Below, piece after piece: positions 53,494 through 63,890 of a stretch of 64,000 bases of DNA. The stretch spans positions 465 through 64,464 of the forward strand of contig JAZRGS010000075.1 in NCBI GenBank assembly GCA_045644305.1, written 5' to 3'. The notes below the pieces were generated by a model that ran no database searches, was not told the DNA's origin, and saw only the letters and a list, made by a program, of their open reading frames with translations. The stretch comes from Eubacteriales bacterium (GTDB lineage: Bacteria; Bacillota; Clostridia; Oscillospirales; CAG-382). Numbering within the stretch: position 1 is the first letter of the stretch; every line of letters begins with the position of its first letter. The position numbers were made by a program, and so were the translations under genes.

Positions 53494-56400
53494 TTAAAGC
53501 GGTTTTTCGGGGTCTTCGAACGGGGTTGCGCCCTTGAGGCTTGTGGTTGTAGACAAGGGATAAACCGATGTGTACATATTAAAGCCTCTGCCGTATTCGT
53601 CTTCACGCATACGGGAAATGATTTCCTCACGCTTACCTGTCGCGAACTCGTTTATAAGGTATGCGTACTGAACCTCACTCCACTTCGCCATACCCTCGTA
53701 AATTTCGAGGTTAAGCTTCTTACCGTAGAGCTTCTTGATCTTCTTCGCATCCCAATTGAGATACTGCCAAATGTGAGTCATTTCGTGAACCATTGTCATG
53801 GTTGCGCTGATACGAGGCGAGCCGTTTTCAAGAAGGATAGAATATCCTTCCTTATCCTTAATAGCCACGCCCAATACGCGTCCGTCGGAGTTGCCCGTGG
53901 GAACAAAGCGTTTGCCGAGCTTGCGGTGCAAGGTCTTTGCGTTAACCATCTTGATCTGAACGGGTTCGTTTATCACGACACCGTAGAAGACCTTCATGTT
54001 ACGCATTACATCCTCGTAAAGCTGCTTAAATTCCTTTTCGGTCTTAACAGCGGTACGGCTGCAGGAGATACAACGCTCTCTGCCGTCGGCGAGAACCTCA
54101 TATTCGGTACCGAGAAGCTCGGTTCCGCAGAAGTCGCAGTAATGGTTGCCCGAGCGAGTCGGGTCATAGCTGCCTTCAAGGCGTTCTGCCTCGTGCTTGC
54201 CCTTTCTTGCCTGCTCGAGGAAGCCGTTCGCATATCCGAGACTTGTCAGAAGCGCGAGCGTTCCGTCGATATCAATGCTTTCGGGCATATCGGTTCCGCC
54301 GTAAAGGAGGTAATAGCGTTCGTGATAGGGCTTGCGAGCGAATTCCTTGCTGTTTACAAGCTTGCTGCCATCTGCTTCGAATTCGAACTGAGCGGCAATG
54401 CCTTCACCCTGAGGTGCGCCTTCGGGTACATCGACTCCGTCAAGGCCTTCGCCGTAATCGGGGTCGTCCTCGGGCATGGGCTGAGGCTCGGGCGCGCTTT
54501 CGCCCTCGTCGGAGGGTTCGGAATCAGCGGCAGGCTCTGCTTCGTCCTTTTTCTTCTTTTTACCGAAGCCGAAGAAGCTGTACATAGAGATGCTTGCATT
54601 TGCATCAAGCTCGCCGTCATCCTCATCCTCGGTAGCCGAAGAGTCGGTGTTTTCGGCACTTTCGGGAGTGTTCAATTCTTCATCGTCGATGTCGGAAACG
54701 TCAAAGGGAAGGTCGCCGTCGTCGGAAGAAGCTTCGGCGGAGGGCTTGTCGCCCTCGGTCAATTCTTCGTCGTCGATATCCGATACGTCGAACGGCAATT
54801 CCTCGCCGTTTTCGCCCGTCGGAGTCGTTACTGTCGAATCAACGTCCGCGTCCTTGTCCTTTTTCTTTTTACGTTTAAACAATCTCTTGAAGAAGCCCTC
54901 GCGCTTCGGCTTATCGCCGGTATTACCGTCGGTTTGCTCGGTTGCGCCCGCCGCTCCGTCCTTCGCAGGCTCGTCGTCGGTCTTGGGCTTACGTCCGAAC
55001 AGCTTTCTGAAGAAGTTTCCGATTCCGCGGAACATCTTCTTGAAGAATCCGCCGATTTTCTTGAAGAATCTGCCGATTGCCGCGAAGAATCCCTTGATTC
55101 CCTTCTTTTTCTTTTCTTCCTCGGGAACCGTATAGTCGGGCTTTTCGGGCTCGACAGGGGGAGGACTCATGCTTTCGGCAAGGGTTTCGTTATGCCATTC
55201 GATATAGTCGTGAATGATGGTGAATATGCGGTTGAGGTTTCTTTCAACGCTTACCAACAAGCCGATATCGAGCTGGCTGTCTTCAATAATATAAATAGCG
55301 TTTGCGGAAGGCTGATATTCACCCTCGCCCTTAAGCGAGTAGGTTACGGGCACCTCGGCTTCGTTCGCGGTAACCGCAACTATCATGCCCTGATTGTCGG
55401 CATAAAGTGTACGGAATACCTCGTTCATAAGCAGAGCGATGGTATTTAATATCTTCGGGGTGATACCCTCACCCTCGGTGAATTCGATCTTGAGCATCTG
55501 CTTGTTACTGTACTCGCGCTTGGGCACGCCGTTGATCTGGATGCACTTGCCCGTGCTGAAGTCGTTGTAACGCTTCATGCTCCAATACGCGGGGGTTTCG
55601 ACGGCAATATCTGCATATTGCTTGGTCACCTTAACCCCGCCGATGTCGCGCATATCGCCCATCATCGTGGAATCGACAGCCGACGAAATGGTGTAGTTAC
55701 GAACCTGACGGTATTGAGGTCTGCCGTTGATATGGTCTGCGGCACGGCGAACTATAACCTTGCCGTCGGAGGACAAACGAAGCATTTCGTAATACTTGCC
55801 CCCGAAGGTAAAGAACTGACCGGGCAGATACTTCTGGAAGACGTGACCGCGAAGCTCGGTACCGAGGTACTGCTTTTCTCCCTTTTCGTCCTCGGCGATG
55901 TATTCGGCAGAGCAAAGGTCGCCCAAGAATACGTCGACGAAGCGCTTGTCGGAGATAGAGTACATATTTTCGATGTTGCCGGTTTTGTAGGAATACTTGC
56001 GCTGAACGTCGATAACCGACGGGCCGAACACGTATTCCCTGCCGTTCTTCATTATGTGAAGCTCGTCTTCACCGTCAACCGTTGCGATGCCTGCGTTTTG
56101 CGAGCACTTGCAAATGCTTTGCCAGATGGTCGACGCAATATTTTCGGTATCCATATCGATAAGCGAAAGCTCACGCGCGATTTCATCCTCGAGCACGTTG
56201 TAGGAGCTCAAGCGCAGACAAAGTCTGTAAATAACGTTTCTTTCGGTGCCCGCATAATCGGCAACGATATAGGGAATCGCCTTGGAGTCGGCATTGAAGA
56301 TGGTATCGTTAGCCGACATATAATCTTTAAGAAGATATTCCGAGGAGATTACGTTGATAAAGCCCTGCTTCTTGGCACGCGTGGAGAATTCACGCTTAAC

Positions 56401-63200: not shown

Positions 63201-63890
63201 GCCCGAGCCCTTCATCATAAATGCGTTGATTTCCTTAATGGTAGCGTAAGCGTTTCTTCTCTGAGAATCGCGTTCTACCGAAGAGTCGATAACGCTGTCG
63301 AGAGTTTCGGGGAGAAGAATGAGCGAACGAACGATAAGGCTGGTGTTGGGATATTTGTTCTGAACGTGGTCACGAACGAACATTGCCAAAGGAAGAGCAA
63401 TACCCGAACCGGTACCACCCGAAGAGGTGGAAACGATAACGATACGCAACGCCTGCTTCAATTCTCTGCCGTCCTTGCGGAAGAGGTCGTCGATAGCGTC
63501 GTAAAGGGGCTTGATCTTGCCCGTCTTAATAGTAGAGTTAAGTGCAAGACGCGAAATAGCGCGAACCTGACCTGCGCCCTCGGAAACGGTCTTATCGTAA
63601 ATAACCGCATTCTTGGGAAACCAGTTCTTCAATGCGTCTTCGTCGTAAGAGAGATAGTCGCCGACGGTCTGGGTATTAGAGGTCTGAACGTAGTAAATCT
63701 TCGCTTTACTCTTAGCGATGCCGGAAAGGTCGTTTACGTTGGTGTCCAAGCAGACGAAACTGATGTTTTGAGTTTCGCCGGGACGGCACATTTCTGCGAC
63801 GCGCTTGATGATGTCGCAACCGGTACCGCCGACACCGATAAACAGTGTAGGTGCTTCAACTTGGTTGTTTTTAACGTTTTCTTTTGCCAT
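60291..63890 (-). CDS. FtsZ/tubulin-superfamily (Tubulin_2-like) protein with ~850-aa C-terminal extension (gene A)
   Basis: 1199 aa with a GGAGA RBS. Motifs: T1 loop GVGGTGCD (aa 19-26, nt 63813-63836), T3-like EGAGQ (aa 104-108), and tubulin signature SGGTGSG (aa 157-163, nt 63402-63422). The remainder is K/E-rich, probably helical, and unassigned. Confidence 0.75.
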   Translation of the reverse strand: MAKENVKNNQVEAPTLFIGVGGTGCDIIKRVAEMCRPGETQNISFVCLDTNVNDLSGIAKSKAKIYYVQTSNTQTVGDYLSYDEDALKNWFPKNAVIYDKTVSEGAGQVRAISRLALNSTIKTGKIKPLYDAIDDLFRKDGRELKQALRIVIVSTSSGGTGSGIALPLAMFVRDHVQNKYPNTSLIVRSLILLPETLDSVIDSSVERDSQRRNAYATIKEINAFMMKGSGFLDVESDLKRYGNLHIDFPIPGTEDKKSLGILPFGFCFLMDGQDAEDTTLVSIEQYKKQAAQALYEQNIGPMQKNAFSVEDNIIKEMSNPGNYGRNRFGAIGAATIRYPYEDIADYVAYDWAIESIGGEGEAAKWSRYDKAFYVLQQEARKKGLSLADLPKLPEVYVEKLDSSKDNFSKDLRDKYLNGAKSRINAYIAALEAEVLKELRNNNEVRNAMTGANLLRNKIDYRSNPDKCGNASGDLGKLRNYERIMGEKAYKIAEGVAEAIFRNETKTINAKEQDKHTLEALMKNTYGEVCHPNAMRYILYSLQTAFDKKLNETSAIRDSAKKALDIFSSKQDNPEKFDAKYTKEQEGNLDALCEVALAEPSFKEKMKGAWQVYDQLNDYFPKYYAGITKYGEAEAKLATYRIGYDYVKDLCEAFERFYATFKEKVEALTKKKDDLVDILSFRKGDSVFNVCASKDLLDEASLSTKSQSKEGTLLDSEANAEIFDAMKQNVEFEREMAALDVVEEDKRIDIFDDVLVGYFKKDVRRKCASLDVNIIEAIALEKRLSARRKTREENEMMNGIEGKTEKVFDKLSNEDYERHIKEVIAMGARLAAPSVQRMRNVESREIALVAYNRALTEMRTYRVKDLMPKGNAVDSISKYELRFFNALYNLTPDKLNKFAAPQITETTKRKGGLYYNAYVSYARDIGPDTTKGAKISTHIDKRWDNISRMPELDFGHQEREMLRIHQAMIYGLIYKALRRCKLSLVADDRMVYKYQNSDEQYVTLSVSNNTPCDEFYELVDSMYISPFIVSDIDVIKAKKNYKDRMHHACYEETEFKKSLDSFLICESRVDDDCKENDIPAGEVSSLFEIPVYYYASLPNNKRFNGEISAIVDAVIKTFEDELLMWEDKDDVKFVLCKILEQQYNLLMEKYDKYPKLRGGFEKKDNPVLEIILRKIRQVIEATPEPSDYVSMINKMKEKLG

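Follow-up and report, generated by a model that had tools for sequence, protein, structure and literature searches.

Within the tubulin/FtsZ superfamily, no branch is more divergent than the FtsZl1 proteins. As defined in 2010 (Makarova and Koonin, Biol Direct 5:33; PMC2875224), they carry a long C-terminal extension in which a coiled coil is followed by an alpha-helical globular domain, and Tubulin_2 is the Pfam model of the family. The same work found most FtsZl1 genes in predicted operons with a protein that has a von Willebrand factor A (vWA) domain plus lineage-specific membrane proteins, and proposed that such operons encode a membrane-remodelling machine. Its Additional file 5 lists for Pseudoflavonifractor capillosus ATCC 29799 the set BACCAP_04124 (vWA, COG2304, 861 aa), BACCAP_04123 (FtsZl1, 1183 aa), BACCAP_04122 ('B5', 658 aa) and BACCAP_04121 ('B12', 1435 aa, described there as a membrane-associated protease of the zincin type with a fused Zn finger), and the same set for Ruminococcus lactaris ATCC 29176 (RUMLAC_01529-01526). 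Related firmicute and actinobacterial neighbourhoods, in which a tubulin-domain protein and an extracellular vWA protein accompany GAP1, a ZnR-GTPase and sometimes SLATT effectors, were later described as NTP-dependent conflict systems, for which the regulated assembly of cytoskeleton-like complexes was proposed (Kaur, Burroughs, Iyer and Aravind 2020, eLife 9:e52696; PMC7159879). Here we analysed a stretch of 64,000 nucleotides from a Eubacteriales bacterium (contig JAZRGS010000075.1; the window), in which three minus-strand genes, A, B and C, are annotated in public databases as 'hypothetical protein [Clostridia bacterium]'. It is well supported that, together with a fourth gene, V, that is cut by the window edge, they make up a self-contained chromosomal operon, V–A–B–C, and that this operon belongs to the vWA/FtsZl1 class of Makarova and Koonin as a subtype of Oscillospirales and Lachnospirales.

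A preliminary description of this DNA had taken the unit as three genes and its partner set as unmatched to any known system, and both statements have to be revised. The edge of the window (Table 1) encodes '...KSPQNGPSVTFDCKVCTEK*', the C-terminus of V, a protein that is seen whole (844 aa) in a near-identical reference locus (L001, 88-97% protein identity to the window). When the flanks of 80 related loci were clustered, 71 of them showed a co-directional open reading frame (ORF) of about 760 aa, located some 39 nt upstream of A. With the tail of V at the window edge, the operon becomes a canonical 'vWA/FtsZl1 operon', and it has the same four genes, in the same order and with similar sizes, as the set listed in 2010 (861/1183/658/1435 versus ~844/1199/667/1579 aa). 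The P. capillosus ATCC 29799 contig NZ_AAXG02000044.1 (B. capillosus in the older naming) was among our loci and presented V–A–B–C in this order, with identities of 59, 43 and 51% for A, B and C, respectively. Having been tabulated in 2010, the gene set itself is no discovery and no new category of system. What is new here is the invariant linkage on a large scale, a model of the topology, and a probably inactivated YprA/MrfA-like core in 'B12'. The 2010 paper gives the set only in its supplement, mentions B12 neither in the text nor in Additional file 6, and holds no topology, helicase-like core, distribution data or experiments, whereas the distribution obtained here comprises 362 species and 581 clusters. 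Other FtsZl1 operons have different partners (GTPase, kinases, OmpA, B1-B9). P. capillosus carries one of these as a second FtsZl1 operon, BACCAP_01022-01027, composed of vWA, FtsZl1, two hypothetical proteins and a 'new GTPase' (PMC2875224, Additional file 5), and therefore two FtsZl1 subtypes coexist in a single genome.

The distribution of the operon was established by a pattern search through a collection of 185,579 genomes, one per species. A relative of C was encoded in 362 of them, all Clostridia, and we kept 80 loci, which came from Oscillospiraceae, Acutalibacteraceae, Ruminococcus, Lachnospiraceae and the cultured Pseudoflavonifractor. Neighbours were scored where the contig gave enough flanking DNA. 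Starting from C, both A and B were upstream, on the same strand and tightly spaced, in 73 of 73 such loci, gaps being found only at contig ends. In the reverse direction, using A as the query, we recovered 51 metagenomic loci. Where their flanks sufficed, these included B (37/37), C (32/33) and V (35/36), so that a neighbourhood check suggested in the preliminary description bore out the adjacency of the A, B and C homologues. The A–B–C order held down to identities of 29% (A) and 22% (B), and the pairwise distances among V, A, B and C were correlated (r 0.47-0.86). Hundreds of genomes keep the same order and orientation, and these results show that V–A–B–C is inherited as a unit, far beyond chance. 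Two metagenomic loci, L085 (A at 473-4015) and L096, displayed A and an N-terminal fragment of B but no C despite downstream sequence, and may be decayed loci or misassemblies.

The tubulin/FtsZ core that had been recognized by eye in A was confirmed by Pfam, in which A scored 186.3 bits with Tubulin_2 (PF13809; cutoff 27 bits, E 1.2e-54) over profile positions 1-352 of 356. The A orthologues of two further loci (L081 and L082) were likewise tagged PF13809. With the Tubulin/FtsZ Pfam model the score was 26 bits, below threshold, and a sequence or profile search of the PDB with A gave no match. The T1 (GVGGTG, of the form GxGGxG) and T4 (SGGTGSG) loops were conserved in the roughly 75 orthologues of our motif census, xGGTGSG being present in 74 of 75. 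The remaining ~850 aa form an extension with a less conserved middle and then a second conserved block at about residues 700-1050, and hydropathy revealed no transmembrane (TM) helix. The prediction that A is a cytoplasmic FtsZl1-family protein able to bind GTP is well supported by these features. A shares with FtsZ, TubZ, PhuZ and CetZ the GTP-binding loops T1 and T4 as well as the GTPase fold of tubulin/FtsZ, but it differs from them in the lack of FtsZ_C or Tubulin_C, in its long extension and in being encoded outside a division or segregation locus.

V begins with a signal peptide, followed by an N-terminal vWA domain with the motif DNSGSM, a beta-rich ectodomain of about 450 aa, one TM helix and a tail of about 150 aa; the vWA domain, with its metal ion-dependent adhesion site (MIDAS), is predicted to be extracellular and the tail cytoplasmic. 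The MIDAS is complete, with D45/S47/S49, T116/T122 and D151 invariant, and the DxSxS motif was found in about 68 of the 71 V orthologues of the census. Pfam VWA or VWA_2 matched six of ten orthologues, in all cases below threshold (E 6e-4 to 0.024), and the only match of the V family profile in the PDB was a weak one to the vWA pilin PilB, aligned at DxSGSM and LTDG. According to the conservation profile, the V ectodomain is the least conserved part.

B and C had both been considered membrane proteins, in agreement with the hydropathy profiles, which disclosed a hairpin of two TM helices in B and about five TM helices in C. B had been described as a protein of 669 aa starting at 60235; this ORF exists, but the start is more likely the second TTG (60229), which yields 667 aa beginning with MFT, because of its 9-nt spacing to GGAGG, the MFT consensus of the family and the 667 aa given by gene callers. 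Both large parts of B are predicted to be cytoplasmic. Its AlphaFold2 (AF2) model (pLDDT 83) depicted an alpha/beta domain at the N-terminus, a very long hairpin of helices tipped by the TM pair and, at the C-terminus, a small beta domain, and a Foldseek search with it found no neighbour at E < 0.001, the best value being 0.04. A resemblance to ClyA-type pore toxins at that E value, with TM-scores of 0.15-0.25, was not counted as evidence. No Pfam match was reproducible among the B orthologues. The two-TM pore domain SLATT/DUF4231 was tried and rejected, as B of the window scored 21.3 bits (cutoff 24.7) and DUF4231 appeared in one of 34 orthologues, the others giving assorted TM-hairpin noise. 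B is without detectable structural or sequence relatives beyond its own family, which is also new in this analysis.

Alignments of C with 16 homologues and afterwards with 45 resolved four blocks: a membrane block, a core, a linker and a C-terminal module. The membrane block contains the five or so TM helices, and the K/R-rich loops at residues 23-38 and 142-182 place the N-terminus outside and the remainder of the protein in the cytoplasm. An outside N-terminus fits a distant homologue (P0293, 1821 aa) in which a secreted S8 peptidase is fused to the N-terminus of C. An invariant Gly-Glu pair (G221-E222, window ~57568-57573) lies in the middle of predicted TM helix 5, and a buried acidic residue kept across a family is unusual.

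The core, residues 236-1030, is extremely conserved. While the preliminary description had found only two assignable modules in the whole unit, this block is a third large one with a helicase-like fold. Its AF2 model (pLDDT 75.6, pTM 0.78) retrieved with Foldseek the helicase MrfA (6znp_A; E 1.2e-22, TM-scores 0.51/0.54, 809 columns), four MrfA entries ranked first, and the next structural matches, at about 1e-8, were Hel308, DbpA, RecQ1, Ski2 and Prp43. The NTPase motifs are gone. At the P-loop position there is no Walker A but NNPFYYD, with only about three loop residues, and at motif II the DExH aspartate is absent and the sequence reads [VIL]EPS[RK]L (IEPS[RK]L). A Walker A pattern matched 5 of 82 C homologues at positions that were not located, and we assumed these matches to be due to chance. 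No 4-Cys site was evident in the core, Pfam and NCBIfam gave no helicase match (DEAD, Helicase_C or DUF1998), and a PDB profile search returned only low-complexity noise. The MrfA-like fold, together with the loss of the NTPase motifs and of any helicase signal at the sequence level, suggests that the C core is probably a YprA/MrfA-type superfamily 2 (SF2) pseudo-helicase, a call based on the structural model and made here for the first time. The core has its multi-domain fold (an array of RecA1, RecA2, wHTH and OB/CON/DUF1998), over about 800 columns, in common with the YprA/MrfA (DUF1998) helicases (MrfA 6ZNP, DrmA of DISARM, Dpd, DruE of Druantia), but C differs from them in its membrane anchor, in the zincin fused to it and in its operon, which also encodes a tubulin homologue, and no sequence similarity to them was detectable. 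Forms that are membrane-anchored, inactive, or associated with tubulin or vWA proteins are not mentioned in a 2025 survey of the YprA family (10.1101/2025.09.15.676423). Clustering at 50% identity yielded 581 representative clusters of the core, all with the same N-terminal offset, and the best 150 matches of a representative-library search were all family members of the same layout, with no remote annotated relatives among them.

The linker that follows is variable and carries the charged repeats noticed in the preliminary description, namely three or four GFFKK-type basic-aromatic motifs (21-nt units) and a 51-nt unit that occurs twice (54672-54722 and 54759-54809), as well as an acidic and Pro-rich stretch and the short hydrophobic motif SMYSFFG. 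A motif of this last kind is common to the C family near the end of the linker (MMFS/MLFS/PVLF/SMYSFFG). The two 51-nt units encode the peptide LPFDVSDIDDEEL with 76% identity in DNA and an identical 13-aa motif, and this identity of the protein despite the divergence of the DNA suggests that the peptide may be under selection as a short linear motif. As a whole, the linker is predicted to be a long disordered tether with membrane-binding basic-aromatic motifs.

The C-terminal module holds PYHERYYLLYGG, the zinc ribbon CxxC…CxxC (CDFCG…C..C), HEMTHIW and YEGMAKW. The zincin-type residues H1483, E1484, H1487 and E1513 (the last, in YEGMAKW on a following helix, being the putative third-ligand Glu) and the ribbon were invariant in the alignment, and [AV]HE[LM][TI]HIW was found in all full-length homologues. 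Of the earlier reading as a zinc ribbon followed by a DA1-like peptidase, the ribbon and the HExxH…E arrangement stand and the family membership does not: with DA1-like (PF12315) the module of the window scored 13.5 bits (cutoff 25), and the 7 of 10 members that matched did so at E 0.012 or weaker. All ten members tested showed sub-threshold matches around HExxH to the zincin families DUF6782, DUF6055 and BSP, which scored better than DA1-like. The module resembles DA1-like and other zincins (PF12315, DUF6782, BSP, WLM/SprT) in the order of the HExxH helix and the Glu helix after a Cys4 ribbon, reminiscent of the LIM-plus-peptidase layout of DA1, but it stays below the threshold of every family. 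It is best described, from its motifs, as a generic zincin peptidase that looks like a separate family, and it would be the sole predicted enzymatic output of the operon besides the GTPase of A. Four C homologues of 1900-2050 aa (P0249, P0262, P0263 and P0282) possess an extra domain that by eye looks transglutaminase-like (CxGYA…HxWN…D), on one or the other side of the zincin module; in P0282 it comes after an additional TM helix.

The coordinates are collected in Table 1. A six-frame ORF list gave A, B and C all on the minus strand with the coordinates of the preliminary description, whose 8-nt B/C overlap, A–B hairpin with a ribosome-binding site and bidirectional terminator were all present. 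The overlap reads ATGATTAA and has the Shine-Dalgarno sequence AAGGAGAGAGG in front of it; on these signals B and C are taken to be translationally coupled. After the TGA of A there is a stem-loop, CCGACCCGTCG-TGATA-CGGCGGGTCGG, and then GGAGG and two in-frame TTG codons. Stem-loops recur at this junction with differing stem sequences (73 loci, median z -2.0, z < -2 in 51%); they were seen in L001-L004, L010, L027, L040 and others. This element may stabilise the mRNA or have an attenuating effect and so set the A:B/C ratio. The terminator is a perfect palindrome common to C and to a convergent gene.

Table 1. Position of the V–A–B–C genes, protein domains and non-coding elements in the window.
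Feature	Position	Strand	Basis
Gene V, 3' end (19 codons + stop)	63941-64000	-	Its translation is found at the C-terminal end of L001:1760-4294 (844 aa)
Gene A, FtsZl1-family tubulin/FtsZ-like GTPase (predicted), 1199 aa	60291-63890	-	ORF list, Pfam, motif census
Tubulin_2 (PF13809) domain of A, residues 16-353	62832-63845	-	Pfam, E 1.2e-54
A–B spacer stem-loop, GC-rich, no U-tract	60251-60278	-	Directly after the A stop codon
GGAGG of B	60239-60243	-	3' of the stem-loop
Gene B ('B5' family), 667 aa, TTG start	58226-60229	-	Ribosome-binding site spacing, family consensus, gene callers
Two-TM hairpin of B, residues 462-517	58679-58846	-	Hydropathy
Gene C, 1579 aa	53494-58233	-	ORF list
C membrane block, residues 1-230	57544-58233	-	Hydropathy, K/R distribution, alignment
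C cytoplasmic core (predicted), residues 236-1030	55144-57528	-	AF2 and Foldseek, motif census
C variable low-complexity linker, residues 1031-1295	54349-55143	-	Alignment, repeats
C C-terminal module, residues 1296-1579 + stop	53494-54348	-	Invariant columns
C zinc ribbon CDFCG…C..C	54061-54138	-	Invariant columns
C HExxH (in HEMTHIW)	53773-53787	-	Present in all full-length homologues
Bidirectional intrinsic terminator	53453-53486	.	14-bp palindromic stem, A6/T6 flanks

The convergent gene (window 47911-53376, plus strand) encodes an S8 subtilase of 1821 aa with dockerin and cadherin-like domains. A functional link between it and the operon was rejected, since of the other loci only L001, the closest relative, has the two side by side, and the single S8–C fusion (P0293) was noted but not counted as evidence for such a link. 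The neighbours in the window are ordinary chromosomal genes: this S8 surface protease, a methyltransferase, a Cys/Met pyridoxal phosphate enzyme, BacA and FtsK. In other lineages the flanks vary, with AcnX and Eut genes in one locus and ScpA/B and YidD in another, and synteny was observed only with the closest relative. A scan of 132 flanking proteins from 66 loci gave scattered matches, with mild recurrences of TIR_2 (six proteins) and leucine-rich repeats (LRR), and a few isolated matches to PADLOC models. In L005, L053, L082 and other loci the module is adjoined by TIR proteins, which often also have a TM helix and LRRs of the BspA type. In L082 (15026-19452) and about 11-22 other loci, though not in the window, three co-directional genes with no Pfam match are found 3' of C, encoding a small lipoprotein-like protein of ~155 aa and two membrane proteins (~700 and ~600 aa). 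NCBIfam searches with A, B and C gave only noise.

As a tentative reading, which we would put somewhat below an even chance, V–A–B–C may be a GTP-gated transmembrane sensor–protease assembly, an outside-in device whose slightly likelier use would be envelope surveillance or conflict. V, A, B and C would form one membrane complex, with B (two TM helices) and C (about five) as the integral-membrane partners of A. The input would be ligand binding or load on the extracellular vWA domain, relayed via the TM partners to A, whose GTP-dependent self-assembly on a B/C platform would act as a threshold or amplifier. Assembly of A would then position or unleash the tethered zincin of C, for which the V tail, B, the C linker, or an invader or envelope protein are candidate substrates, and the outcome would be a local membrane or envelope response. 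The pseudo-helicase could be a scaffold or a ligand-binding module, and the GFFKK motifs could keep the tether at the inner leaflet. For the sensor–effector side of this reading, the systems of Kaur et al. offer a precedent by analogy and a hint. Their GAP1-N2 systems are alike in occurring in Firmicutes, in their membrane-proximal nature and in two components, a tubulin-domain protein extended C-terminally by a coiled coil or helices and a TM protein whose vWA domain is extracellular (PMC7159879). However, their GAP1, ZnR-GTPase, FNIII-repeat proteins and second tubulin and vWA genes are absent from V–A–B–C, and a giant protein combining pseudo-helicase and zincin is not described there. GAP1 and a TRAFAC GTPase with N-terminal zinc ribbons were not among the recurrent flank families, as judged without a dedicated GAP1 profile. 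Since the defining GAP1 and GTPase genes are lacking, V–A–B–C is not a member of those systems. The YprA-family helicases are typical of defence systems (10.1101/2025.09.15.676423), and further hints of conflict are the peptidase-like domains fused to some C homologues, the V ectodomain as the least conserved part, the TIR proteins in the flanks (6 of 132) and the conserved linker repeat. In its most specific form, that of a new membrane-embedded immune or surveillance system, the MIDAS-vWA receptor and the NTPase-dead, membrane-anchored YprA-like helicase would detect an invader at the envelope, for instance an attaching phage or DNA on its way in, a polymer of the tubulin GTPase would amplify the signal and the zincin, possibly with B, would respond; we consider this form doubtful.

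Several observations weigh against the sensor–protease reading. The strongly conserved cores and the stable architecture in 362 species would suit a housekeeping machine better than an immune system that evolves fast. No PADLOC-DB 2.0 family was matched by A, B or C at E up to 1 in the comparison with defence catalogues that the preliminary description had suggested. The C core was found on no plasmid or phage, and there is no consistent defence-island context around the operon. The domain roles of V, B and C are inferred from motifs and folds, all family matches being sub-threshold, and the SLATT-like match of B is a chance one in view of its single occurrence among the orthologues. According to the 2010 authors the T6-H7 elements are not recognisable in FtsZl1 proteins (PMC2875224), which makes filament formation uncertain, and no interaction, GTPase, polymerisation or protease activity is reported for any FtsZl1 system in the literature that we found.

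The constitutive membrane-remodelling or cytoskeletal machine proposed in 2010 (PMC2875224) comes next and is a possible explanation, if a less probable one. FtsZl1 polymers anchored by B and C would shape, tubulate or vesiculate the membrane, V would link them to the wall or exterior, and the zincin would mature or turn over components. This would fit four proteins that are all membrane-associated or membrane-proximal, a tubulin-superfamily protein with a long helical extension, amphipathic GFFKK-type motifs in C that could bind the inner leaflet, and conserved cores in a chromosomal, non-mobile context with synteny in close relatives. Against it stand the patchy distribution (362 species of 185,579, all Clostridia) and the varying genomic contexts; it also leaves the dead helicase scaffold and the extracellular MIDAS domain without a role, and the doubt about polymerisation touches it as well. 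Anti-phage defence or abortive infection, with the vWA domain or pseudo-helicase sensing phage attachment or incoming DNA, FtsZl1 setting a threshold and the zincin, possibly with a B pore, killing or arresting the cell, would draw on the precedent of conflict systems with tubulin, vWA and two-TM effectors and on the frequency of inactive enzymatic domains in such systems (both PMC7159879), on the fold of a family central to DISARM, Dpd and Druantia, on the variable effector-like domains of C homologues, on the TIR and isolated PADLOC-model matches in the flanks, and on a faint likeness of the B hairpin to ClyA-type toxins. We think it unlikely, given that PADLOC matched nothing, the GAP1 and GTPase components that define the Kaur systems are missing from the module, the SLATT assignment and the Foldseek matches of B did not hold, and the window context is ordinary chromosome, with none of the copies on phages or plasmids. 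By analogy with integrins, the MIDAS of V might instead bind a host or substrate ligand while its tail couples to an FtsZl1 cytoskeleton via B and C, stabilising attachment or reporting contact. The layout of V is that of a type I adhesin (after the signal peptide a vWA domain with a complete MIDAS, then a beta-rich, Ig-like stalk, a TM helix and a short tail), its sole PDB match is the adhesin pilin PilB, the carriers are all gut or rumen Clostridia, and vWA domains take part in bacterial surface sensing according to one source (PMC9210963). Adhesion or mechanosensing nevertheless leaves the zincin and the pseudo-helicase unexplained, no sortase or wall-anchoring signal was noted in V, and the comparison is an analogy only, so that we regard it as improbable. 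Least of all would we expect a DNA-directed role, in which the C core, by analogy with its closest fold, the DNA helicase MrfA (~800 columns), would bind nucleic acid and with A tether, segregate or take up DNA at the membrane, much as the tubulin-family TubZ/RepX drive plasmid segregation (PMC2875224): the C core lacks Walker A and the DExH aspartate and has only about three residues at the P-loop position, there is no DNA-binding partner, centromere-like repeat or mobile-element context, and the extracellular vWA partner has no role. We would tentatively, and by small margins throughout, order the possible functions as envelope surveillance or conflict before constitutive membrane remodelling, then adhesion or mechanosensing, and lastly DNA-related processes.

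Fifteen years after FtsZl1 was described, experimental work on any FtsZl1 system, or on the BACCAP and RUMLAC locus tags, did not turn up in our literature searches, and the preliminary description of the unit as uncharacterised stands as far as experiments are concerned. V–A–B–C offers a practical entry point, being a compact set of four genes with an invariant architecture, widespread in gut and rumen Clostridia and present in the cultured P. capillosus ATCC 29799 and R. lactaris ATCC 29176. Its putative parts list, a vWA domain outside, a GTPase inside, a dead YprA-like scaffold and a tethered zincin, leads to predictions that separate remodelling from conflict. If the model of the C core is right, a helicase family associated with defence has an inactivated, membrane-anchored offshoot. 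Should the immune form of the sensor–protease reading prove true, a bacterial tubulin homologue would act as a signalling polymer and not as a cytoskeletal or segregation motor.

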